The translations under genes and the position numbers were made by a program. Positions 1,902 through 12,426 of a DNA stretch of 12,426 bases are shown piece by piece (position 1 is the stretch's first letter; every line of letters starts with the position of its first letter). The DNA lies in the IMG/VR virus record IMGVR_UViG_2690316131_000019; one strand, given 5' to 3'. The DNA is from a virus (Duplodnaviria; Heunggongvirae; Uroviricota; Caudoviricetes). Below the pieces are notes generated by a model, which saw only the letters and a list, made by a program, of their open reading frames with translations, was not told where the DNA came from and did not search any database.

Positions 1902-2519
1902 TTAGCATGATTCAGGGGAAACCCCAATATTAAATATGAGTGTCTCCCCTGAATCAGCATAATAATGTAATATTATTGACTTACGTTGTTTTCTTGCTTC
2001 GTAGAATAAACGCTCTTGCGGCGATAATTTGTGAAAACTGCCGGATGCACAATATATGTTTTTTAACTTTTCGCGGGTTTCTTTTATTGTATCTTCTGAT
2101 ATGTATTTTAGGTATTTATCCGTATAGATGTTGCTACTATAAGAAATTAATGTTTTGCTGTTGTTGTGATGTATTGTATTTTTATCGTTGAAGTCTGTAT
2201 TTTTATTTACTGTCATTAGGTTTTTAATGATTACATGTAATACAATAGTCTCCCCATCATCAATTCCATATTTGATGTCATAGTCAGTATATTTATTTGT
2301 TATACCGTTTCCTGATAGCGGCACTATGTACTCTGAGAAAAATGAGTTTGCCGCGTGACTATCAAGAGCAATAGCAGTTTGTTTGTGGTAAAAATAAAAC
2401 AATATTGAGAGAGTCAAAATAATAGCGACGCCTAATGCAACCTTTAATATAGATATGGTTTTCAAAATATCGCTCCTTGTTGTAACATACATCAGTAATG
2501 TGGCGTTTTTCAATTGCAT
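1902..2519 (-). CDS. AT-rich membrane-anchored protein of unknown function, possible superinfection-exclusion-type moron
   Basis: 205-codon ORF at about 30% GC, much lower than flanking late genes. Strongly hydrophobic N-terminal segment (ILKTISILKVALGVAIILTLSILFYFY) followed by a polar Asn/Lys/Tyr-rich domain. Lies between the ejection gene and the mnt-like gene, where P22 carries sieA. No convincing Shine-Dalgarno at either candidate start (2519 or 2492), so the start is uncertain. Confidence 0.4.
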   Translation of the reverse strand: MQLKNATLLMYVTTRSDILKTISILKVALGVAIILTLSILFYFYHKQTAIALDSHAANSFFSEYIVPLSGNGITNKYTDYDIKYGIDDGETIVLHVIIKNLMTVNKNTDFNDKNTIHHNNSKTLISYSSNIYTDKYLKYISEDTIKETREKLKNIYCASGSFHKLSPQERLFYEARKQRKSIILHYYADSGETLIFNIGVSPESC

Positions 2520-2555: not shown

Positions 2556-2987
2556 CTATTCAGGTATTTCAATTCCAAAACCATCTGCATCCCATGAGTT
2601 TTCACAGATGATGTAACCTAGTTCATTGAGCTTATTAAATGTTTTTTCAAAGATGATCTGGTAATCATTATCTGCAAGTGATTCCAGTTCAAGGTCATTA
2701 AGGTTTATATAAAAACTTGTATGTCCAAGTGTTATTTTCTTATTAATTTCATTAAAGGTTCTTTTGAAAATAATATTTGATATTTCATGTCGTGCATTGT
2801 TTGCAATGATTTTTGCTTCATAAGCAGAAATTACGTCATCTTCATGAATATCTTTCAGAAAGCTGGTGTCAAGACGTTGTACTATTTCAGCGTTCATTGA
2901 TCGCTTATTGGCTTTTGCAGAAATTTCTATTTTTTCTTTTACTTCGACGGGAAGTCTGATCCTTAGTTGTGGATCTTCTCTGCTCAT
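2556..2987 (-). CDS. mnt: Mnt-like ribbon-helix-helix repressor with an extended C-terminal domain
   Basis: N-terminal segment MSREDPQLRIRLPVEVKEKIEISAKANKRSMNAEIVQRL matches the Arc/Mnt RHH signature (recalled P22 Mnt: DDPHFNFRMPMEVREKLKFRAEANGRSMNSELLQIV). Preferred start is the ATG at 2987, preceded by GGTGAAG; the ORF track extends to 3017. Product is 143 aa, against about 82 aa for P22 Mnt. Confidence 0.65.
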   Translation of the reverse strand: MSREDPQLRIRLPVEVKEKIEISAKANKRSMNAEIVQRLDTSFLKDIHEDDVISAYEAKIIANNARHEISNIIFKRTFNEINKKITLGHTSFYINLNDLELESLADNDYQIIFEKTFNKLNELGYIICENSWDADGFGIEIPE

Positions 2988-3024
2988 GTTCTTCACCAAA
3001 TATTGAGTTACTTGCAATGATTGA

Positions 3025-3072
3025 AGTATGCCTCACCGTGTGCTTGACATCAATGACGCACGGTGTGACAAT
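3025..3072. promoter_or_regulatory. Divergent, overlapping sigma70 promoters (Pant-like on +, Pmnt-like on -) with CACGGTG/CACCGTG operator-like repeats
   Basis: Plus strand: TTGACA (3044-3049), 17-bp spacer, TGT-GACAAT extended -10 (3064-3072). Minus strand: TTGATG (rc of 3048-3053), 17 bp, CATACT (rc of 3025-3030). The 7-mer CACGGTG or its complement occurs at 3034-3040 (inverted), 3060-3066, 3083-3089 and 3288-3294. Confidence 0.45.
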
Positions 3073-3107
3073 TATTTTGCCCCACGGTGGGGCTAAGGAG
3101 ATATGAA

Positions 3108-3275
3108 ATGCAAAAAGCAAAAGAGATGTGTCAACGACGAGTTCGTTTTCCGGACGATGTGAAGTTAGCTATTGAAAGAAATGGCGAAAAAGAATGCCGA
3201 AAGTTCAATACAGAGATTATCTATCAGCTGAGGAAAGTGTATGGACTCACTGGTGAGAAGAATAGCGTGGCATAA
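3108..3275 (+). CDS. arc: Arc-like ribbon-helix-helix repressor
   Basis: 55-codon ORF with AGGAG (3096-3100) 7 nt before the ATG at 3108. Sequence QRRVRFPDDVKLAIERNGEKECRKFNTEIIYQLRKVYG has the Arc-type beta-strand/helix pattern (recalled P22 Arc: FNLRWPREVLDLVRKVAEENGRSVNSEIYQRV). Divergent from the mnt-like gene and directly upstream of the ant-like gene, as in P22 immI. Confidence 0.6.
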   Translation: MQKAKEMCQRRVRFPDDVKLAIERNGEKECRKFNTEIIYQLRKVYGLTGEKNSVA

Positions 3276-3347
3276 AACAGCGAAGCCCCACGGTGGCCAG
3301 ACCGTCAGGGCTTCAGTATCGTAAAACTACGTATAGGAATTAACGAC
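3272..3347 (-). ncRNA. sar: Candidate sar-like antisense RNA covering the ant ribosome-binding site
   Basis: Minus-strand promoter inside the 5' end of ant: TTGATA (rc of 3377-3382), 17-bp spacer, TATACT (rc of 3354-3359), predicting a start near 3347. Minus-strand terminator hairpin (stem 3282-3288 / 3308-3314) followed by GCUGUUUUAU in the arc-ant spacer. Predicted ~75-nt transcript is antisense to the ant SD (AGGAA 3335-3339); by recollection P22 sar is about 69 nt and similarly placed. Confidence 0.4.
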
Positions 3348-4286
3348 ATGACGAGTATAGCAACAGCAGTATCTACTATCAACGTGCCATTCCACGGCGC
3401 AGAGCTTTATGTTGTCAATCACAACGGCGAACCGTATACCCCAATGAAACCTATCGTTGAGGGAATGGGGCTAGACTGGAAATCTCAACATAAGAAGATT
3501 TCTCAACGCTTCTCGAAGGGTATGGTGGAAATCACCATACCTTCTGCCGGTGGGGGGCAAGCCATGATTTGTATGGCTTTACGAAAATTGGCAGCTTGGT
3601 TGAACAGCATCAGCCCTAACAAAGTCCGCCCTGAAATCCGCGACAAGGTAATCCAGTATCAGGAAGAGTGTGACGATGTGCTCTACGAGTACTGGACTAA
3701 AGGCCATGTGGTTAACCCACGCAAAGCTAAAAAGGCGTTGCCGGGTAAAATAACAACTGAACAGCAGGAAGCCATTAAACAACTCGTCATGAGTCGCGGT
3801 CAGTCTCTGCCAAAAGAAAAACAGGCTAAGGCGATGATCACCATGTGGTCGTCACTGAAATCTCATTTTGGCTGTTCGTACAAAGAAATTGGTGAAGATC
3901 AATTTGCCGAAGCGTTGTCTCTTGTTGCTCGGGTTCCGCTTGAAGGGGAGTATCTCCCTGCTGGATCTGCATCAGAGAATGATGAAGTGGCAGTCAAGAT
4001 GTTAGATGCGCTTCGTGAGGCAATTAAAACACAGACAAAATGTTATGGTTATCCATTGAAGCCAGGCTACCGCAGTCTGATTCATTCGCCGTCGGGTGTT
4101 CTCGGCCTGACGGAGAACTCACTGCTGATGAATCTGCTGAACCAGTTACAGGAAGACGGGCACGACGTATCGGGCGCGGCGGCGGAGCTGACCACCATGT
4201 TCTGCTACATCGTCGGTGTGAGCAAATGCCTGCGTGATATCCAGACGCACGCGGAGTACATCAACGACAAGGCTGGGTTCTTCTGA
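3348..4286 (+). CDS. ant: Phage antirepressor (P22 Ant-like: N-terminal Ant domain plus conserved C-terminal module)
   Basis: 312-codon ORF with AGGAA SD 8 nt upstream of the ATG. N-terminus (SIATAVSTINVPFHGAELYVVNHNGEPYTPMKPIVEGMGLDW) resembles P22 Ant-type antirepressor N-domains. Lies downstream of arc as in P22. The C-terminal ~78 aa are nearly identical to the C-terminus of the 5460..6170 product. Confidence 0.7.
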   Translation: MTSIATAVSTINVPFHGAELYVVNHNGEPYTPMKPIVEGMGLDWKSQHKKISQRFSKGMVEITIPSAGGGQAMICMALRKLAAWLNSISPNKVRPEIRDKVIQYQEECDDVLYEYWTKGHVVNPRKAKKALPGKITTEQQEAIKQLVMSRGQSLPKEKQAKAMITMWSSLKSHFGCSYKEIGEDQFAEALSLVARVPLEGEYLPAGSASENDEVAVKMLDALREAIKTQTKCYGYPLKPGYRSLIHSPSGVLGLTENSLLMNLLNQLQEDGHDVSGAAAELTTMFCYIVGVSKCLRDIQTHAEYINDKAGFF

Positions 4287-4304
4287 CGGGCGGCGGCACA
4301 GGGA
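4050..4304. repeat. Left arm of a ~255-bp inverted repeat (3' end of ant plus 18 bp past its stop)
   Basis: The reverse complement of 5444..5698 matches 4050..4304 with only a few mismatches by manual alignment, including the stop codon and the downstream TGACGGGCGGCGGCACAG. Confidence 0.85.
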
Positions 4305-4335
4305 CGTGCAAAACGAAACTAGCGTGACATGTCAC

Positions 4336-4360
4336 AGGCCGCTTTCGCGGCCTTGTTTTT
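4336..4360 (+). terminator. Rho-independent terminator downstream of ant
   Basis: Stem AGGCCGC (4336-4342), loop TTTC, stem GCGGCCT (4347-4353), then TGTTTTT. Immediately preceded by a perfect 12-bp palindrome GTGACATGTCAC (4324-4335). Confidence 0.6.
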
Positions 4361-4520
4361 AACGAATGCCACCGCCGCCTGGGCGGGAATCCGCAGAACG
4401 CCCACCGCAGCGTGAGCCGTCAGCAGCAGTGTCGCTGTCGTGCTGACAACGACCGGCAAAGGCCTGAGTTGAAGCTACCAGAGACAACAAAACGAACAGT
4501 GCAGCAAATGCTTTTTTCAT
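4359..4520 (-). CDS. Small predicted secreted peptide (53 aa precursor, about 31 aa mature, two Cys)
   Basis: ATG at 4520 gives MKKAFAALFVLLSLVASTQAFA-GRCQHDSDTAADGSRCGGRSADSRPGGGGIR, with a classical signal peptide and AXA cleavage site. SD is weak (GGAA) and the mature part is GC-rich and low-complexity, so coding status is uncertain. The ORF track's 88-aa version starts at 4625 with no SD. Confidence 0.3.
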   Translation of the reverse strand: MKKAFAALFVLLSLVASTQAFAGRCQHDSDTAADGSRCGGRSADSRPGGGGIR

Positions 4521-4612
4521 TGTGAAATTTCCATCTATAAGCCACCTCAATGTGGCGTCAATGAGTGTAGCACTGACTTTTGTTTCGTCCACAAAAAAGC
4601 CTGCGCTGCGGA

Positions 4613-5158
4613 CTATTCCTTCCATTTATCAGAAAAAAGATCTTCTTCTAAAGGCATTGGTTCTGTTTTTGTTTTCTCAAAGAATTGATAACTGATAGTG
4701 ATTGCTTCCTCTTTAAACTCTTCTTGCTCAGTTATGTTGTGAGCATCTGCGTCAACAAAAAACATAACCAGCGCATCACGATTGTGATTTACCGAATAAA
4801 CTAAAAAGCAATCACTTGTTGGTATGCATTTTACTTGTACAGACGCTATATTTTTCCATGCATCCCAAGATGATTTTTTACCAGTGTGTTTTTTATCACT
4901 ATCTTCTGGAATATAGTCTTGGTTATCGACATGAGTATGCCTGACATTTAGTTTAAGCATTTCTGTCGGACGAGCAAATGCAGCATCTTTACCAAGAGAT
5001 GGATGATATCCCGTTTTCCAATACTGGGCAAAGGCATCAGATACTTTCTTCAGCTCAAGATCAGATGCACAAAGGGCCGAGAAATTTTGCGTATGCAATA
5101 CTCGACCCTTATATCTGACAATTTGATTTTTATCATTCTGCGACGCAGACGAACTCAT
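4613..5158 (-). CDS. YafO-like toxin-domain protein (candidate ribosome-dependent mRNA interferase / abortive-infection effector)
   Basis: 181-codon ORF starting at the ATG at 5158 with AAGGAAA SD. The central region (GKDAAFARPTEMLKLNVRHTHV ... TSDCFLVYSVNHNRDALVMFFV) resembles the recalled conserved YafO blocks (GRDALYDDSF..FERVAHIHL ... DEAHLVYCQ..AWLLIAIL). AT-rich relative to the flanking repeats. Assignment is from memory, not a search. Confidence 0.4.
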   Translation of the reverse strand: MSSSASQNDKNQIVRYKGRVLHTQNFSALCASDLELKKVSDAFAQYWKTGYHPSLGKDAAFARPTEMLKLNVRHTHVDNQDYIPEDSDKKHTGKKSSWDAWKNIASVQVKCIPTSDCFLVYSVNHNRDALVMFFVDADAHNITEQEEFKEEAITISYQFFEKTKTEPMPLEEDLFSDKWKE

Positions 5159-5312
5159 AATTTTCCTTATTGTTACGAGAATCAAAGAAAGCGCGGGATA
5201 CGCGACTTGCGTGATCTTTTGTCATAGTAACTTTTACGTACTCTACGCTTCCATTGAAAGAACGTCTTGCGGCAGCTTGCGCTCTACGCATCTGCAATTT
5301 TTCGTTTCGCAT
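5133..5312 (-). CDS. Small basic ORF (59 aa) overlapping the start of the YafO-like gene; possible cognate partner or regulator
   Basis: ATG at 5312 is preceded by GAGGT with 6-nt spacing. Hand translation gives MRNEKLQMRRAQAAARRSFNGSVEYVKVTMTKDHASRVSRAFFDSRNNKENYEFVCVAE, ending 26 nt inside the downstream gene. It falls just below the 60-aa cutoff of the ORF track. No recognised family. Confidence 0.2.
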   Translation of the reverse strand: MRNEKLQMRRAQAAARRSFNGSVEYVKVTMTKDHASRVSRAFFDSRNNKENYEFVCVAE

Positions 5313-5443
5313 GACATTACCTCATATCTCATAAGTTCATTACACGGATTAATAAAAATGAAACCAATCCGTTTACCCTTGAGGTAATAGTACGCTATTC
5401 ACCCACAGTCTGCAATCTGTACAGAATTATTTAAAGGCACATC

Positions 5444-5698
5444 TCTGTGCCGCCGCCCGTCAGAAGAATCCTGCTTTGTCGTTGATGTACTCCGCGTGCG
5501 TCTGGATATCACGCAGGCATTTGCTCACACCGACGATGTAGCAGAACATGGTGGTCAGTTCCGCCGCCGCGCCCGATACGTCGTGCCCGTCGTCCTGTAA
5601 CTGGTTCAGCAGATTCATCAGCAGTGAGTTCTCCGTCAGGCCGAGAACACCAGACGGCGAGTGAATCAGGCTGCGGTAGCCGGGCTTCAGTGGGGCAC
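5444..5698. repeat. Right arm of the ~255-bp inverted repeat (3' end of the Bro-N antirepressor gene plus 16-18 bp past its stop)
   Basis: Reverse complement aligns with 4050..4304 at roughly 95% or better identity by eye. Confidence 0.85.
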
Positions 5699-6170
5699 TG
5701 TAGGTTTTGTTCTCTATCTTCATTGCCTGTATTACTGCTGACGCCGTGGCGTTGGCTACCTGGTCGGCAACCATCTTTATGCGTTCTTCCTGCGGGAGCG
5801 AGTTTTTAATGTAACTTCCGGTGCGGCGGATCTGAGGAAGAACCTCACCTGTAACCCATTTACGAAAGCGGTAGGGGATAGTGCCTGGTGTCACCGCATC
5901 GCGGCAGCGGAGGATCAGTGTGTAGAGGCCTGACTCGGAGATGATGTTGATCTCTTTTACTCGGCTGTCAAAAATTGCACGATGTTCATGCCCTATGTTG
6001 AACATAGACCTTTCATCATCATCCAGTTTTTCAAGTGATTGGGTGACGTTTTGGATACGCAGCGCACTACAAACGTCTTGGGCTACAAACCATGGTTGGC
6101 CATCGATAATGATGGAACGGATAGGGTTAACAGATTCAAATTTGAAGATGGCAGTTTGAGCATTAGCCAT
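5460..6170 (-). CDS. Antirepressor with Bro-N-type N-terminal domain and the shared Ant C-terminal module
   Basis: 236-codon ORF from the ATG at 6170, with GGAG 9 nt upstream; the ORF track extends to a GTG at 6185. N-terminus FKFESVNPIRSIIIDGQPWFVAQDVCSALRIQNVTQSLEKLDDDER is a typical Bro-N / phage antirepressor N-domain. The C-terminal 78 aa match the ant C-terminus. Confidence 0.7.
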   Translation of the reverse strand: MANAQTAIFKFESVNPIRSIIIDGQPWFVAQDVCSALRIQNVTQSLEKLDDDERSMFNIGHEHRAIFDSRVKEINIISESGLYTLILRCRDAVTPGTIPYRFRKWVTGEVLPQIRRTGSYIKNSLPQEERIKMVADQVANATASAVIQAMKIENKTYSAPLKPGYRSLIHSPSGVLGLTENSLLMNLLNQLQDDGHDVSGAAAELTTMFCYIVGVSKCLRDIQTHAEYINDKAGFF

Positions 6171-6321
6171 GGTGGTTATCTCCACTTAGTGATTTTAATC
6201 ACCACCGCAACGCCAATTACTGGTGGTGAACTGGACAAGGTTGGCGTACCGGCCTAAGTGGTACCGGCGTCCTTTCGGACCCCTGCCCAGCCCACCATAA
6301 TTCGGATATGGCTGTGCTTAA

Positions 6322-6354
6322 CGCATAAAAAAACCACGTCTGGCGTGGTATGCG
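6322..6354 (-). terminator. Rho-independent terminator for minus-strand transcription from the LexA-controlled gene
   Basis: On the minus strand: stem CCACG, loop CCAGA, stem CGTGG (6334-6348), followed by UUUUUUU (6327-6333). An outer CGCAT/ATGCG pairing (6322-6326 / 6350-6354) is also possible. Confidence 0.5.
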
Positions 6355-6485
6355 CCACTTAGTAACTCGGGACGCCAATCCCGGCACTGGATTTTGCCAG
6401 TACCCGATTACTATGGCACAAGAGGAGTGCGATGTAAATTTACCTCAAAGGTAAATATAAGCACTCCACTTGGTAATTGCAAACC

Positions 6486-6743
6486 TTATCTGGTTTGTTT
6501 TCGTAATTGTTCGGCACAATAGTCGAGATGTGTTTGCAGATCCTGCATAGACATCTGTGAGCTGGTGACGTAGTTAATCAGTGCAGTCAGTTCGGCAAGT
6601 GGGCCATCGACATTAAATCCATCCTTATCGAGATCCCGGAGTAATTTCATCAAGAGCGATCCCTCCACCAGTGATCTGACGCCTCCCGGCGTGTGAATCC
6701 TTTCGGTAAATCCGTCTTCCAGTGGATAGTGATACTGCTGCAT
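6486..6743 (-). CDS. Small stand-alone antirepressor-like protein (85 aa), a free copy of the Ant C-terminal module
   Basis: ATG at 6743 with GGAGAAG SD. The product (..HTPGGVRSLVEGSLLMKLLRDLDKDGFNVDGPLAELTALINYVTSSQMSMQDLQTHLDY..) aligns with the shared C-terminal module of the two larger antirepressors (HSPSGVLGLTENSLLMNLLNQLQEDGHDVSGAAAELTTMFCYIVGVSKCLRDIQTHAEY) at roughly 40-45% identity by eye. Confidence 0.55.
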   Translation of the reverse strand: MQQYHYPLEDGFTERIHTPGGVRSLVEGSLLMKLLRDLDKDGFNVDGPLAELTALINYVTSSQMSMQDLQTHLDYCAEQLRKQTR

Positions 6744-6762
6744 CTTATCTTCTCCATGCAAT

Positions 6763-6782
6763 AACTGTACAAATATACAGTA
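6763..6782. promoter_or_regulatory. LexA (SOS) box just upstream of the small antirepressor-like gene
   Basis: AACTGTACAAATATACAGTA matches the consensus TACTGT(AT)4ACAGTA; CTGT-N8-ACAG is intact at 6765-6780. It lies about 8 nt upstream of the SD of the minus-strand gene that starts at 6743. Confidence 0.6.
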
Positions 6783-6938
6783 TCAAATAATTTGTTTGCT
6801 ATCCAGCACGTTTTGCAAATCACCTGAAAGGTAATATCTGTGTGTATTGATGATGTTTCTATCCATATATGGTTCATTGGGTAATAAAATAGCCAGATAT
6901 GCGGCGCAACGGGTGCTGCGACTATCTGGAGATTTAGC

Positions 6939-9227
6939 ATGACGGTCTCAACCGAAGTTGACCACAACGAATACACAGGTAACGGTGTTACGACATCATT
7001 TCCGTATACCTTCAGGATTTTCCAGAAATCTGATCTGGTAGTACAAGTGGTTGACCTTGATGAAAATATCACTGTTCTTGCTCTTGATACTGATTACACA
7101 GTTACCGGGGCGGGAGGATATAACGGTGGTAATGTAATTCTGTCGAAGGTGTTGGCTAACGGTTATCTGATTTCTATATATCGAGAGCTACCGGTTACGC
7201 AGGAAACTGATTTGCGTAATCAGGGTAAGTTCTTTGCAGAAGTGCATGAGAACGCTTTTGATAAGCTAACGATGCTGATCCAGCAGGTTCGAAATTGGTT
7301 CAGTCTGGCGCTACGAAAGCCGTCGTTCGTGGCTAATTATTACGACGCGATGAATAACTATATTCGTAATCTTCGTGACCCATCTAGGCCGCAAGATGCA
7401 GCAACGAAAAATTATGTTGACGGGCTTGCAGAAACAAACCTGAGCAGAACGCTACGAACTCCCGAACCGATATCAACTTTGCCCGGCGTTGAGCAACGTA
7501 AGAATAAGATTGTTGCAATGGATGATTCAGGGAACCCACTCATGGTTCTCCCGGAATCAGGTTCTGCATCTGATGTTATGATCGAGTTAGCAAAGCCAAC
7601 AGGGGCTAGTTTGATTAATACTAAAGATGGAGAAAATCTACAACTTAAAATTAATAAAATACCTCCCCTTTATGCTGAGGAGTTTGGTGATCTTACTGGA
7701 TTTGATGTTACTGACATATTTCAACATGCTATTGATACTGCATCTGCTCAATGCCGTGAATTAAGAGTAAGGACGCAAATTATAAATGTTAGGCAACTCA
7801 AACTCCCTAACAATACTATTTTAAATCTAGGCGTTTGTACTTTAAGGCAAATATCTAATACAAATAAGCCATTAATCAGGAATGATGTATTTGGATATGC
7901 GGATAAAGTTCATACAAACTTAAATATTACCATTATTGATGGGATTCTTGATTTTAATGGTTCAAACCAGTCTGACACTACGGCAACAGGAGAAGTTAAT
8001 GTCGGCTGTGCATTTTTTGGGGTGAAAGGCCTTCATTTTCGTGGCTCAACAAAATTCATTAATGCCAGACGTTATAGTTTTTTTGCTGCAAATTGTGCAA
8101 ACATTACTTTTGATGATCCGGTTGTTGAAAACGACCCGGAAATACCAAGTAGTAATAAAGATGGCTTACATTTTTGCGGAAAAATTTACGGTATTTCAAT
8201 AAAAAGTATTTATGTTTATAACCCAGAAGATGATGCACTAGCTATAAATGCTGATGATGTAGATCATGGTGGGGAATGGACTCGCGCTAACATTACTGGA
8301 GCAATAGATAATGTTTGGGTTGGGCAAGTTCGTGTGGATGGTCCTTCATCGCATAACGGTGTGCGTTTGCTAAGTGCGTCCCCCAACACCCCTATTTCAA
8401 ATGTGAAAATTGATTCAATTGTAGGTAAAGTAGATAATTATTTTCTTAATATTCAACCATACGGTTTAGGTACTTCATCGGTATACCACAATATTGATAT
8501 CGGAATTATAGGAGGAATATATTCTGTCAGAACCAATCCTGCATTTACTCATGGCATGGTAAATATCTACACTATGAAGCCGAACCCAGCAGTTTTGAAT
8601 AATATTCATATTGGTCAGATTTTTCGTGATCAGGAAATTGGCGATGGACAGGATCGTCCGACTGTACAGTTATGTGTTGAAAACACTTCTGTTACATTTG
8701 ATAAAATTGTCGAGCAGAATTGTGCTAATGATGCTGTCGTTAGGGTAACGGAGATAGGACCTTCGGCTTTTATAACTCTAAACGAAGCATACAAAAAATC
8801 CACCCGAACCTTAACTCCTGGTGTGTATGGTTCCATCGTAATTGTAAGTAATGTTAACGACAATCAACTTGAACACCTTAAAATTGGATTCAATTCTGCA
8901 GATAGACTACGTCACGTTGTATTGGCAAGGTCTGTAAAAATTAAACGTTTAGATATGTTTAGTGATGGTTCAGCAGACAATATCCCTCTGTATCTTGAAT
9001 CATCCCAGGTAACTAATCTGAATTGGAATAGTAGTGTTACATCCACTTATCAATTTACTGCACACCGCTATACGCTTTCAGGTGAATCGTCTGCTGTAAT
9101 ATTTGAACGCCCTGCTGTTACAGGTGGGAGTACTGCAGAACGTCCAGTAAATGCAATAATTGGTGACAGTTTCTATGATACAACAACGAATACTCGTGTG
9201 AACTGGAATGGTAGTGCTTGGGTTTAA
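6939..9227 (+). CDS. Tailspike / tail fibre protein with conserved N-terminal particle-binding domain and C-terminal beta-helix receptor-binding (probable polysaccharide depolymerase) domain
   Basis: 762-codon ORF with GGAG SD. The N-terminal ~150 aa (EYTGNGVTTSFPYTFRIFQKSDLVVQVVD...DTDYTV) fit the T7 gp17 / epsilon15-type tailspike anchor pattern as recalled. The downstream part is AT-rich with repetitive N/G/I/V-rich segments typical of a right-handed beta-helix. Confidence 0.8.
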   Translation: MTVSTEVDHNEYTGNGVTTSFPYTFRIFQKSDLVVQVVDLDENITVLALDTDYTVTGAGGYNGGNVILSKVLANGYLISIYRELPVTQETDLRNQGKFFAEVHENAFDKLTMLIQQVRNWFSLALRKPSFVANYYDAMNNYIRNLRDPSRPQDAATKNYVDGLAETNLSRTLRTPEPISTLPGVEQRKNKIVAMDDSGNPLMVLPESGSASDVMIELAKPTGASLINTKDGENLQLKINKIPPLYAEEFGDLTGFDVTDIFQHAIDTASAQCRELRVRTQIINVRQLKLPNNTILNLGVCTLRQISNTNKPLIRNDVFGYADKVHTNLNITIIDGILDFNGSNQSDTTATGEVNVGCAFFGVKGLHFRGSTKFINARRYSFFAANCANITFDDPVVENDPEIPSSNKDGLHFCGKIYGISIKSIYVYNPEDDALAINADDVDHGGEWTRANITGAIDNVWVGQVRVDGPSSHNGVRLLSASPNTPISNVKIDSIVGKVDNYFLNIQPYGLGTSSVYHNIDIGIIGGIYSVRTNPAFTHGMVNIYTMKPNPAVLNNIHIGQIFRDQEIGDGQDRPTVQLCVENTSVTFDKIVEQNCANDAVVRVTEIGPSAFITLNEAYKKSTRTLTPGVYGSIVIVSNVNDNQLEHLKIGFNSADRLRHVVLARSVKIKRLDMFSDGSADNIPLYLESSQVTNLNWNSSVTSTYQFTAHRYTLSGESSAVIFERPAVTGGSTAERPVNAIIGDSFYDTTTNTRVNWNGSAWV

Positions 9228-11136: not shown

Positions 11137-11289
11137 CATGGCATTTTTCATGGTACTGATTTCCGGTGACGGTATATAAAACGGTACTAAAAAAATGAGG
11201 TTTTGGAAAAATGTTATCACTCAATTGGTTATGGCTTCCGTAAATAATTGAGTGGGAATGATTTTAATCCCTGCACTATGAATGAACAA

Positions 11290-11355: not shown

Positions 11356-11895
11356 TTAATTAAACCAGCTGTCCGATTTGTTCTCTTCTGCTTTGCCCAC
11401 GCTTTTCATCAGATCGCGACCGCCTTCAGTCATATTTCTGTTGGCGTCAGCTTCAGATTGCACCACATCGGTTTGCGCAGCTTTGTGCTTCAGTTCCTGA
11501 TCGATAAATTCGTTTTCTCGCTTAACGCGGGCTTCTTCTTTTGCCAGCGCCAGTTTTTGTTTCTGAATCTCTAAGCTGCGTAGCTCATCTTCATAACTTT
11601 GATCGCGTTTTTTGTCCGCAGAGGCTTCGGCGTCCAGTTTATCCTGACGAGCTTTCTTATTTGCCGCTGCCGTTGCCGCTCTTTTGTTAGCGGCGGCCTG
11701 GGCATTTGCGCGACGTTGCTTCTCTTGCTGGATTTCCCTGTTGCGCTCCGCGACCCATTCGTCATGCTGCCTTTGCTCTTCATTTTTACCTTGCTGTTCA
11801 GCTTCTGCTACAGCAGAGAGTTGATCCTGCAATGATGAGGCGATAGCCGGATAGCTTAAGGAGGCCAAGATGGCGCAAAGAAAAACTTTCTTCAT
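11356..11895 (-). CDS. Secreted, highly charged coiled-coil-like protein of unknown function
   Basis: 179-codon ORF with a classical signal peptide (MKKVFLCAILASLSYPAIA-SS) followed by Lys/Glu/Ala/Gln-rich low-complexity sequence. Confidence 0.5.
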   Translation of the reverse strand: MKKVFLCAILASLSYPAIASSLQDQLSAVAEAEQQGKNEEQRQHDEWVAERNREIQQEKQRRANAQAAANKRAATAAANKKARQDKLDAEASADKKRDQSYEDELRSLEIQKQKLALAKEEARVKRENEFIDQELKHKAAQTDVVQSEADANRNMTEGGRDLMKSVGKAEENKSDSWFN

Positions 11896-11910
11896 GACTC
11901 CTCCTGATTA

Positions 11911-12426
11911 TTAGCTCTTTTCAGGACATTTAGTATTTGGCTGAATACGCGTTTCGTTATACGTTGTGGTAATAACAACGGCTAAACCTGTCGTAAACTG
12001 GCACTCTTTACCCACCTGGGTAGAGGTATACACTTTGGTGCCTTCCTTATATGTTAAAGAAACACCTTCCACTAAGGTTTTATCATTCACCATAGAACCC
12101 ACTGCCGCGCCTACAGCTCCGCCGCCAACTGCCCCTGCCGTCGTTCCGGAATTGCTGCCAGAACCGACGTTGTGGCCGATAACACCGCCAGCGACTGCGC
12201 CAATAAGCGCGCCGAAGGCTTGTGCGTTCCGTTTATTTTGGGAGTTGTCTACGGCAACTTTTGCGGGAAGAATGGAAATAATATTAACGGTTTTAGTTTC
12301 TTGTTTGGTATTCAGTTGATCGGTTTGATAAACATCGGCGGCATGATCGTCAGCATTTGACTGGCATCCTGCCAGAGTGAATGACGCTAACATTGCCACA
12401 GGCAGAAGACATTTTTTAAATTTCAT
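11911..12426 (-). CDS. Outer-membrane lipoprotein of the glycine-zipper (SlyB/Pcp, YcfJ-like) family
   Basis: Lipobox (LASFTLAGC) and a central Gly-zipper (GALIGAVAGGVIGHNVGSG...GAVGGGAVGAAVGS) closely resembling recalled E. coli YcfJ (GSVLGAVAGGVIGHQFGGG) and SlyB. The start codon is the last three bases of the window. Confidence 0.6.
   Translation of the reverse strand: MKFKKCLLPVAMLASFTLAGCQSNADDHAADVYQTDQLNTKQETKTVNIISILPAKVAVDNSQNKRNAQAFGALIGAVAGGVIGHNVGSGSNSGTTAGAVGGGAVGAAVGSMVNDKTLVEGVSLTYKEGTKVYTSTQVGKECQFTTGLAVVITTTYNETRIQPNTKCPEKS

Follow-up and report, generated by a model that had tools for sequence, protein, structure and literature searches.

A strong predicted LexA operator at a small antirepressor promoter of a Uetakevirus prophage in E. 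coli

The window analyzed here, a DNA stretch of 12,426 nt, covers the right arm of a phiV10/epsilon15-type (Uetakevirus) prophage integrated in E. coli. Its attR core, together with the host genes that flank it, confirms that the element is an integrated prophage. The features of the locus are as follows:

2556 to 3017, minus strand: Arc-family regulator in the Mnt position (Pfam Arc, 1.2e-14; 'Arc family DNA-binding protein' in strain 13E0780)
3109 to 3276, plus strand: Arc-like ORF of 55 aa, divergent from the Arc-family regulator
3279 to 3346, minus strand: sar-type antisense RNA (Rfam RF00262, 44.8 bits vs a gathering score of 43), on the strand opposite the P22-type ant leader
3348 to 4286, plus strand: third antirepressor gene, P22-type ant (Pfam P22_AR_N, 7.6e-45), with an Ant-like C-terminal domain
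5460 to 6170, minus strand: second antirepressor gene, Bro-N ant (Pfam Bro-N, 3.9e-19), with ATG at 6170 and a GGAG Shine-Dalgarno sequence
6219 to 6302, minus strand: C4-type antisense RNA (Rfam RF01695, 66 bits vs a gathering score of 45), just upstream of Bro-N ant
6327 to 6403, minus strand: isrK-like small RNA (Rfam RF01394, 63.5 bits vs a gathering score of 50)
6440 to 6482, minus strand: promoter-like TTGCAA-17-TATATT (6482-6454), with a perfect TTACC-N5-GGTAA palindrome (6440-6454) abutting the -10
6486 to 6743, minus strand: ant, encoding a small antirepressor of 85 aa, orthologue of SPC32H Ant (stop codon TAA, 6486-6488)
6752 to 6755, minus strand: Shine-Dalgarno sequence GGAG of ant, at 8 nt from the ATG and invariant in alignment A1
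6763 to 6782, minus strand: predicted LexA operator (SOS box), minus-strand letters TACTGTATATTTGTACAGTT
6777 to 6785, minus strand: putative extended -10 of the ant promoter, TG-a-TACTGT, from conservation and analogy with phage 186
6800 to 6805, minus strand: putative -35 of the ant promoter, TGGATA, separated from the -10 by 17 bp
6820 to 6834, no strand: Rep-operator-like palindrome TCACC-N5-GGTAA (pattern search), between the ant promoter and the tail-fibre gene
6939 to 9227, plus strand: tail-fibre (tailspike) gene, divergent from ant and carrying a tail-fibre annotation in phiV10 and ZX5
11247 to 11263, plus strand: attR core ATTGAGTGGGAATGATT, an exact match to the published attP/attB core of ZX5, phiV10 and epsilon15
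11356 to 12426, after attR: host genes yfgI and yfgH, from the annotation of strain 13E0780

The start of ant proposed by the ORF finder, TTG at 6761, was rejected because the ATG and its Shine-Dalgarno sequence are kept in all relatives and the crystallised homologue has 86 aa. Using phmmer, the ant product was matched to PDB 5D50 chain E, 'Anti-repressor protein' (E 1.5e-45), with residues 2-84 aligning with residues 3-85 of 5D50_E, and alignment with SPC32H Ant revealed ~85% identity. The product also matches phrog_450 (4e-47), which is labelled 'unknown function' in PHROGs, and most records call the gene 'hypothetical protein'. A Pfam search of the small Ant assigned no family, with a single sub-threshold match to DUF724, and the P22_AR_N domain was absent. 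The gene order is that of SPC32H ant and epsilon15 gp19, with ant divergent from the tail-fibre gene. Judged by these sequence comparisons, the small ant is the orthologue of SPC32H ant. The gene is present on more than 80 near-identical IMG/VR contigs, and in the phage collection the Ant domain was confined to Uetakevirus-type records.

Upstream of ant lies the 20-mer AACTGTACAAATATACAGTA (6763-6782), a single copy in the window; further copies within two mismatches were found neither in the window nor in 200 shuffles. A pattern search identified the same 20 bp as the sole perfect CTGT-N8-ACAG in the window. LexA scoring was carried out with a symmetrised weight matrix derived from 24 E. coli LexA boxes, which yields the textbook LexA consensus TACTGTATATATATACAGTA. 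With this matrix, the box obtained 22.8-23.5 bits and a heterology index of 4.07, ranking among the recA, sulA and uvrB boxes by score and heterology index. The runner-up LexA-like site in the window reached 8.0 bits, and the best site per shuffled window (n=200) averaged 10.1 bits with a maximum of 18.9. A related 41-kb prophage, analyzed in its entirety, has one strong LexA site (24.6 bits; next 11.8), and so does epsilon15 (27.6 bits; next 10.1). On the minus strand, the order of elements is TACTGTATATTTGTACAGTT-ATTGCAT-GGAGAAGATAAG-ATG, with 7 nt from the end of the box to the Shine-Dalgarno GGAG (6755-6752) and 19 nt to the ant ATG (6743).

The box has the same position in eight Uetakeviruses (alignment A1), in five prophages of other genera, and in all 77 IMG/VR loci that include upstream DNA, the relatives returned by the IMG/VR scan all being 98-100% identical; a scan of genome contigs returned five loci. 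Across these relatives, the CTGT/ACAG half-sites are fixed and the centre is variable. The box-bearing elements come from E. coli, Salmonella, Enterobacter, Klebsiella, Citrobacter, Erwinia, Pseudocitrobacter and Scandinavium. The variant present in the window, with centre ATATTTGT, is rare (2/80) and scores ~3 bits below the common one; the box of the 13E0780 prophage is identical to that of the window. In the box region, SPC32N differs from SPC32H solely by a change of ACAG to AAAG within the box, equivalent to G6767T on the plus strand of the window, and this mutation reportedly renders Ant constitutive. The first-pass annotation had described a near-consensus LexA box immediately upstream of the Shine-Dalgarno sequence, on the promoter of a stand-alone antirepressor-like gene. 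Its placement was accurate, and the uniqueness, the weight-matrix score and the perfect half-sites of the box, along with the orthology to SPC32H Ant and the conserved position, bear out both the site and its assignment to this gene. By its letters and their conservation, 6763-6782 is very probably a real and strong LexA operator at the promoter of the small antirepressor gene.

The promoter of ant (P_ant) appears to overlap the operator. The sequence TG-n-TACTGT is invariant in alignment A1, in five prophages of other genera, and in 76 of the 77 IMG/VR loci, and the -10 hexamer within it (6782-6777) doubles as the left LexA half-site. Further upstream, CTGGA-A at fixed spacing is invariant in the aligned phages (8/8) and present in five prophages. 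This pattern points to P_ant being TGGATA-17-TGnTACTGT, a layout like that of p95 of phage 186, and the exact hexamers given here are the probable ones in view of that conservation and analogy. A simple sigma-70 consensus scan called no promoter at the LexA box because TACTGT fits only three of the six consensus positions. Other hexamers at P_ant, namely TATATT within the box, TACAGT, and a TTGATA -35, were dropped because their partner hexamers were poor or unconserved in A1. Transcription would start near 6770 and would probably end at the isrK-like terminator (6349-6333), the first intrinsic terminator downstream of ant in the terminator scan, which detected none between ant and the isrK-like RNA.

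The gene for Rep of this lineage is not part of the window. The gene that occupies its place in the closely related 13E0780 prophage encodes a protein with 42% identity to SPC32H Rep (2e-53), which has HTH_3 and YdaS-like HTH matches and lacks a Peptidase_S24 match. Rep is thus only 42% identical to its SPC32H counterpart, compared with ~85% for Ant, which makes the pairing of Ant with Rep in this lineage a presumed one. The motif TTACC-N5-GGTAA occurs three times in the window vs 0.21 expected; it is annotated as a repressor site throughout epsilon15 and is also found in the rep-cro intergenic region of a related prophage. The epsilon15 site orthologous to 6820-6834 is annotated as protein_bind 'repressor', and ATTACC..GGTAAT is kept at this site in alignment A1. 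From its motif, the palindrome at 6440-6454 is a putative Rep-binding site as well, and 5373-5387 is a further candidate. In 42 of the 77 IMG/VR relatives, the palindrome at 6440-6454 has a counterpart no more than 100 nt beyond ant, 33 of the 77 also having a promoter-like pattern there, and in these relatives the half-sites are kept and the N5 centre varies.

Both larger Ants possess a C-terminal domain ~40% identical to the small Ant (alignment A2), which matches phrog_450 at residues 158-239 of the Bro-N Ant and residues 230-310 of the P22-type Ant. The loop CCACUUAG of the C4-type RNA is complementary to ACUAAGUGG, a sequence that sits at the ribosome-binding site of Bro-N ant (6190-6182) and within the isrK-like RNA (6363-6355). 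The ZX5 orthologue of the Bro-N Ant has a C-domain 98.8% identical to that in the window, and its overexpression reduced lysogeny ~1000-fold (ZX5 paper). That paper, the sole experimental one found on an E. coli member, attributes antirepression to the Bro-N protein and nowhere mentions LexA or the small ant. It also reports 1e9 PFU from ZX5 lysogens with mitomycin C, and phiV10-species prophages are inducible by a DNA-damaging microcin, both in indirect agreement with SOS control. In the P22-type module, the Arc-family regulator (2556-3017) is divergent from the P22-type ant; a Pant-like promoter is found at 3044-3072, and a promoter-like TTGATA-17-TATACT (3382-3354, minus strand) lies just upstream of the sar-type RNA. 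This module contains no LexA box, and the pattern search revealed no Rep-operator-like site in it. The coexistence of a Mnt/Arc-controlled Ant with the small one, as claimed in the first-pass annotation, is thus supported by the Arc-family gene, the Arc-like 55-aa ORF, the sar RNA and the P22_AR_N Ant; its count of antirepressors was one short, as the Bro-N-type Ant had been overlooked.

We consider an SPC32H-like LexA-P_ant-Ant-Rep switch of a Uetakevirus prophage to be the best explanation of the locus and put its probability at about 0.9. In the lysogen, LexA would occupy the -10/start-site region of P_ant (TGGATA-17-TGaTACTGT) and keep ant off, and Rep, which has two HTH domains and lacks an S24 domain for self-cleavage, would shut many phage promoters via ATTACC-N5-GGTAAT. 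Upon DNA damage, active RecA would lead to self-cleavage of LexA and transcription of ant. Ant would then bind Rep and break up its DNA-binding tetramer, resulting in lytic growth. The steps of LexA repression and of Ant action on Rep are carried over from the literature on the orthologue: as summarised in reviews, SPC32H Ant is SOS/LexA-controlled and inactivates the lytic repressor via protein-protein contact, and the Ant tetramer breaks up the Rep tetramer.

AT-rich intergenic regions do contain palindromes, and the phage's own operators are also palindromic, with a 5-bp centre, so the 20-mer might be a chance AT-rich inverted repeat or an operator for a phage protein instead of a LexA site. 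This appears extremely unlikely, given its perfect half-sites at 8-bp spacing and its ~23 bits vs a shuffled maximum of 18.9 (n=200), the invariance of these half-sites across genera while the centre drifts, the dissimilarity of the motif to the Rep operator ATTACC-N5-GGTAAT, and its near-identity to the LexA site of 186 p95. It also seems very unlikely that the main target of the box is late transcription or the divergent tail-fibre gene. Although it is located within the 195-bp divergent intergenic region (6744-6938), it is 157 bp away from the tail-fibre ATG vs 19 bp from the ant ATG and overlaps the conserved TGnTACTGT that faces ant; moreover, the tail-fibre side has a Rep-operator-like site of its own (6820-6834).

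As to the neighbouring antirepressors, the LexA-small Ant and Mnt/Arc-Ant modules had initially been read as two independent induction inputs. Both modules are present and apparently intact, and the P22-type module has promoters, sar RNA and Arc-family genes of its own and lacks a Rep-operator-like site. However, no known signal lifts Mnt-type repression in a lysogen, and P22 ant mutants are still SOS-inducible, so the Mnt-controlled Ant is dispensable for SOS induction in P22. A third Ant is present besides, and the Rep-operator-like site on the promoter of the Bro-N cassette makes this cassette more likely to act downstream of Rep than independently. Two independent inputs are therefore improbable, and that part of the initial reading is not upheld. 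A layered network, in which the LexA-controlled small Ant is the trigger only, would extend the LexA-Ant-Rep switch and is a tentative possibility. Here, loss of Rep would turn on the 6482-6454 promoter and hence the isrK-like/C4-like/Bro-N ant cassette, the Bro-N Ant would lock the switch or act in trans on other Uetakevirus prophages, and the P22-type Ant would act at infection. Such layering would fit an Ant domain that is common to three genes and, in the phage collection, restricted to Uetakevirus-type records, as well as the excess of TTACC-N5-GGTAA, with one copy abutting a promoter-like -10 and the same motif serving as the annotated epsilon15 repressor site and recurring between rep and cro. 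It would likewise fit the run from ant to the isrK-like RNA without a terminator, and the ~1000-fold lower lysogeny upon overexpression of the ZX5 Bro-N Ant, an effect exerted against Rep of this lineage. On the other hand, Rep binding at 6440-6454 is a prediction, the isrK-like terminator and the C4-type RNA should hold Bro-N ant largely off, and 35 of the 77 relatives lack the operator after ant and retain the LexA-ant unit. At least 18 of these 35 have a plain terminator there. The missing operator in these LexA-ant relatives indicates that the Bro-N cassette is accessory.

A full three-tier antirepressor network, based on three copies of one Rep-binding domain and triggered by the LexA-controlled small Ant, is rather doubtful. 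Its tier 1 may be the LexA-controlled free domain (6486-6743), its tier 2 the Bro-N fusion (5460-6482), placed behind a Rep-operated promoter, the isrK-like terminator and the C4-type RNA and freed only after Rep falls, and its tier 3 the P22_AR_N fusion (2556-4286), which may act at infection under Arc-family and sar control. If true, tier 2 would provide positive feedback or induce heteroimmune Uetakevirus prophages in trans. The three-antirepressor layout may be the only undescribed part of the locus, as no description of it was found in the searchable literature.

The preferred reading, in which LexA controls the small ant and Ant acts on Rep, would assign the SOS input of phiV10-type E. 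coli prophages to a 20-bp site and an 85-aa gene; these prophages are very common and include residents of O157 and other STEC strains. Correct annotation of ant could aid in predicting which drugs and bacteriocins induce these prophages, and in engineering non-inducible or non-lysogenising phiV10/SPC32H reporter phages. The LexA-ant result is a confirmation; a new testable question is raised only by the stacked three-antirepressor arrangement.

Among known systems, the closest is that of Salmonella phage SPC32H, which belongs to the same genus, Uetakevirus, and whose Ant is ~85% identical and of equal length. In SPC32H, ant and the tail-fibre/tailspike gene are likewise divergently oriented, the LexA box is equally far from the ATG and aligns column for column with that of the window, and the TGGATA and TGnTACTGT elements are shared, with a Rep-type operator nearby. 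The differences are that the host here is E. coli and that Rep of the lineage is just 42% identical. In addition, the end of the virion operon directly follows ant in SPC32H and epsilon15, whereas ~4.6 kb separate the two in the window. This stretch contains two more Ant genes, three small RNAs, the Arc-family pair and a YafO-like toxin gene.

Phage 186 offers a second parallel. Its p95 is a LexA-repressed promoter in which the TACTGT half-site is the -10, as proposed for the window; in the 186 record, the -10 of p95 spans 29044-29049 and its LexA site 29044-29063, and the latter matches the window's box at 17 of 20 positions. Tum of 186 acts on a repressor that is not subject to RecA cleavage and inactivates it, which is also the role proposed for the small Ant. 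Tum, however, has a DinI-like part, comes from a P2-like myovirus, and is unrelated in sequence to the small Ant (BLASTP 18 bits, E 0.02 in a single comparison). By this analogy, the small Ant would work like Tum without being a member of the Tum family, and the likeness to Tum and Gifsy-type antirepressors drawn in the first-pass annotation is thus a functional one that does not extend to homology with Tum. Gifsy-1/Gifsy-3 (GfoA, GfhA) and Fels-2 follow the same logic in other phage types, and their antirepressors are said to be structurally distinct from the SPC32H class. In the Gifsy and Fels-2 prophages, LexA restrains a small antirepressor that works on the repressor through protein contact and is able to do so in trans (Lemire et al. 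2011, PMC3121763).

Other immunity regions resemble the neighbouring modules and not the small ant. P22 immI (mnt, arc, sar, ant) corresponds to the module at 2556-4286, except that the C-terminal part of the latter is the Uetakevirus Ant domain and not Pfam P22_AR_C. P1 immI (C1-controlled c4 RNA-icd-ant) and Gifsy-1 isrK-orf45-anrP resemble the cassette at 5460-6482, which like them combines isrK-like and C4-type RNAs, a Bro-N Ant and an operator-like promoter, its regulation being predicted from these motifs; the isrK, C4 and Bro-N trio has also been reported in APSE phages. The switch of the window itself matches the SPC32H switch that has already been worked out, and its identification is correct, not new.

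The 20-mer AACTGTACAAATATACAGTA occurs once in the window, at 6763-6782, which is also the only place where the pattern CTGT-N8-ACAG is found without mismatch. It sits just upstream of the Shine-Dalgarno sequence of the small gene ant, as the first-pass annotation had claimed, and the minus strand from box to start codon reads TACTGTATATTTGTACAGTT ATTGCAT GGAGAAGATAAG ATG.

6755-6752, minus strand: Shine-Dalgarno GGAG of ant, read from the sequence
6743 (ATG) to 6486-6488 (stop), minus strand: ant, 85 codons, read from the sequence

The site was scored, as that annotation had proposed, with a LexA weight matrix, here a symmetrised one built from 24 E. coli LexA boxes, which returns the textbook consensus. 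At 22.8-23.5 bits and a heterology index of 4.07, the box ranks with those of recA, sulA, and uvrB, and the runner-up LexA-like site in the window scored 8.0 bits. In 200 shuffled windows, the top site averaged 10.1 bits with a maximum of 18.9. The near-consensus LexA box is thus real and far beyond chance. Its centre in the window, ATATTTGT, is a rare variant (2 of 80 IMG/VR loci, and also E. coli strain 13E0780) and lies approximately 3 bits below the common ATAAATAT form; this weaker box might let ant leak slightly more and raise spontaneous induction.

We aligned the intergenic stretch between ant and the tail-fibre gene in the window with its counterparts in phiV10, SPC32H, SPC32N, epsilon15, Tyrion, BUCT554, and BUCT711. 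The box occupies the same columns in all eight sequences, and its CTGT half-site is kept in seven of them (ATGT in BUCT711). The ACAG half-site is invariant apart from SPC32N, which reads AAAG. This single base within the box is all that separates SPC32N from SPC32H in the aligned region, and the change costs approximately 7 bits in the matrix. ACAG to AAAG is reportedly the mutation that makes Ant constitutive in the SPC32H study. The box was also present at the same distance from the ATG in five prophages from Citrobacter (two species), Candidatus Erwinia dacicola, Pseudocitrobacter, and Scandinavium, with four different versions of the 8-bp centre. Among 80 IMG/VR contigs, 77 carry it at that place (24.6-27.7 bits), and of the remaining three, at least two (L018 and L060) break off just upstream of the gene; variation among these loci is found in the box centre and one base just upstream of the box. 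Whole-sequence scans of the related prophage (41.3 kb, identical box) and of epsilon15 each gave this one strong LexA site, so the phage circuit appears to have a single entry point for LexA.

A simple consensus scan found no promoter at the box. Directly upstream of and into the box, T-G, one free base (A, C or T), and TACTGT are invariant in the alignment and the five prophages, and TG-n-TACTGT is present in 76 of 77 IMG/VR loci. This would fit the extended -10 pattern TGnTAnnnT, the putative hexamer being the left half-site of the box. CTGGA-A (TGGATA, 6805-6800), which lies 17 bp farther upstream, is invariant in the alignment as well. The GenBank annotation of coliphage 186 p95, with a -10 at 29044-29049 and a LexA site at 29044-29063, has exactly this layout, and its LexA site (TACTGTATGTTTATACAGTA) agrees with the box of the window at 17 of 20 positions. 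Based on the conserved elements and the 186 layout, we assign the ant promoter, P_ant, to 6805-6777 and the transcription start to about 6770; LexA would then cover roughly -12 to +8. A terminator scan of the window revealed none downstream of ant ahead of the one at 6349-6333.

The 85-aa product (small Ant) has one match in the Protein Data Bank, 5D50 chain E ('Anti-repressor protein', 86 aa; E 1.5e-45, residues 2-84), which is the Ant of SPC32H. The SPC32H gene (KC911856) is found at the equivalent place and likewise diverges from the tailspike gene, and the two proteins share about 85% identity; this supports the reading of the small gene as a stand-alone antirepressor. A review places Kim and Ryu 2013 among the cases in which an antirepressor is produced after LexA self-cleavage, and describes such antirepressors as inhibiting the lytic repressor by protein-protein contact. 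The Pfam search assigned small Ant to no family, PHROGs places it in phrog_450 ('unknown function'), and nearly every E. coli phage and RefSeq record examined lists the orthologue as a 'hypothetical protein'. There is an annotation gap here, in that the orthologue of a crystallised and functionally characterised antirepressor has been left unnamed.

Identity across the region is 93-96% with the Escherichia phages HEMP4, phiv142-3, ZX5, and phiV10 and approximately 79% with the Salmonella phages SPC32H, SPN1S, and epsilon15; every relative among them with a genus assigned in the records examined is a Uetakevirus. The best matches in complete E. coli genomes are prophages between guaA and yfgI. 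The phage part of the window closes with holin, endolysin, and Rz genes, followed by an attachment site and the host genes yfgI and yfgH.

11247-11263: att core ATTGAGTGGGAATGATT, exact match, after the lysis genes

The window is therefore the right arm of an integrated prophage, and the integrase and repressor are at the opposite prophage end, beyond the window. In the closely related prophage of strain 13E0780 (identical box), used as a stand-in, a 194-aa protein encoded at the SPC32H rep position is 42% identical (2e-53) to Rep, the repressor on which Ant acts in SPC32H. A domain search of this protein gave HTH matches and no S24 peptidase domain, a composition that fits a putative repressor needing an antirepressor, not RecA-stimulated self-cleavage. 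All seven annotated 'repressor' sites in the epsilon15 record read ATTACC-N5-GGTAAT, a motif that also fills the space between rep and cro in the 13E0780 prophage. The core TTACC-N5-GGTAA was observed three times in the window (one with mismatch) versus 0.21 expected.

6820-6834: Rep-operator-like site flanked by P_ant and the tail-fibre gene; its epsilon15 orthologue is annotated
6440-6454: Rep-operator-like site, perfect palindrome, adjoining the -10 of a promoter-like site that comes shortly after ant
5373-5387: Rep-operator-like site upstream of the YafO-like gene

In SPC32H and epsilon15, nothing separates the end of the virion operon from ant, whereas the two are about 4.6 kb apart in the window. 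This segment holds a complete P22-type immI region (2556-4286) and a second module (5460-6482) that begins right at the ant stop codon.

2556-3017, minus strand: Arc-family gene (Pfam)
3044-3072: Pant-like promoter
3109-3276: Arc-like 55-aa ORF
3279-3346, minus strand: sar-family antisense RNA, own promoter at 3382-3354
3348-4286: Ant with P22_AR_N domain (Pfam)
4336-4353: terminator after the P22_AR_N Ant
4359-4625: 88-aa ORF overlapping the YafO-like gene (phrog_3117/14503, 'membrane associated protein')
4613-5185: YafO-family toxin-like gene (Pfam 9e-6, just over cutoff)
5460-6170: Bro-N Ant
6219-6302: C4-family antisense RNA
6327-6403: isrK-family RNA with terminator
6482-6454, minus strand: promoter-like TTGCAA-17-TATATT, its -10 abutting the palindrome at 6440-6454

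A 205-aa ORF (1902-2519, minus strand; phrog_8033, function not known; no Pfam match) separates the last virion gene from the Arc-family gene, and no YafN-type antitoxin was recognisable beside the YafO-like gene (4359-5185). The isrK- and C4-family RNAs form a tandem pair ahead of the Bro-N ant gene (6219-6403). The C4 RNA has a loop, CCACUUAG, that is complementary to ACUAAGUGG at the ribosome-binding site of that gene (6190-6182), following the same logic as P1 c4, and ACUAAGUGG recurs within the isrK-like RNA (6363-6355). The isrK, C4, and Bro-N trio has been reported in APSE phages.

The two large Ants share a nearly identical C-terminal domain of 80 aa, which is about 40% identical to small Ant over the whole length of the latter. 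At tblastn sensitivity, this domain was detected in the phage collection only in records also found as relatives of this Uetakevirus region. It forms the C-terminal third of the P22_AR_N Ant, which suggests that a domain swap redirected a P22-type Ant towards the Rep of a Uetakevirus. The 3' ends of the large ant genes form a 292-nt inverted repeat (4018-4309 and 5437-5728, 91% complementary), suggestive of recent gene conversion; it runs about 23 nt beyond each stop codon and brackets 1.1 kb with the YafO-like gene and the 88-aa ORF, a segment that could invert by recombination. In ZX5, whose Bro-N Ant C-domain is 98.8% identical to that of the window, Bro-N Ant overexpression cut lysogen numbers about 1000-fold, and mitomycin C gave free phage up to 1e9 PFU; the paper mentions neither LexA nor the small gene, and this study of lysogeny control overlooked small ant. 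In phiV10, the Bro-N Ant (6177-6856) matches the C-domain of the window in two pieces, carries the annotation of two ORFs (p23 and p22), and is probably disrupted; the small LexA-controlled ant (p24) is intact. A Rep-type operator lies within 100 nt after ant in 42 of 77 IMG/VR relatives, 33 of the 77 having a promoter-like pattern as well, and in the window this layout leads to the isrK-like RNA. The commonest sequences among the other 35 have a plain strong terminator (AAAGGCCGCAAGAGCGGCCT) directly after ant. This split indicates a conserved core consisting of the LexA-ant unit, with the remaining modules as accessories.

The best explanation, to which we give a probability of about 90%, is that the SPC32H switch operates in a relative from E. 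coli. LexA would repress P_ant; DNA damage would remove LexA, the Ant then produced would disassemble Rep, and the Rep-operated promoters would open. That the box is a chance palindrome or a phage operator is extremely improbable in view of its score, the conservation of its half-sites, and its unlikeness to the Rep motif. That the box serves the tail-fibre gene and not ant is very improbable, as this would match neither the distances nor the orientation of the conserved elements.

The first-pass annotation had further proposed two independent induction inputs, a LexA-controlled small Ant and an Mnt/Arc-controlled Ant. As stated this is not supported and appears unlikely, since the P22-type Ant is dispensable for SOS induction in P22 and a third Ant is present. 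A layered arrangement, tentative as it is, would be compatible with the SPC32H-type switch: the Bro-N cassette would be freed only after Rep falls and would then reinforce or spread the signal, in line with the operator-like site on its promoter.

The SPC32H-type switch finds circumstantial support in the induction of phiV10-type prophages by DNA-damaging agents. Its novelty is low, as the locus adds a new E. coli member, so far unannotated, to a type of switch known in detail from this genus. The interest lies mainly in the annotation gap and in the three-antirepressor arrangement; no description of three antirepressors with one common domain was found in the literature searched. Compared to the SPC32H Ant family, the locus shows all computationally testable features (homology, box, position, and genus), the Rep feature being compared in the sister prophage only. 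The likeness to 186 Tum raised in the first-pass annotation extends to the mode of action and the promoter layout, not to family membership.
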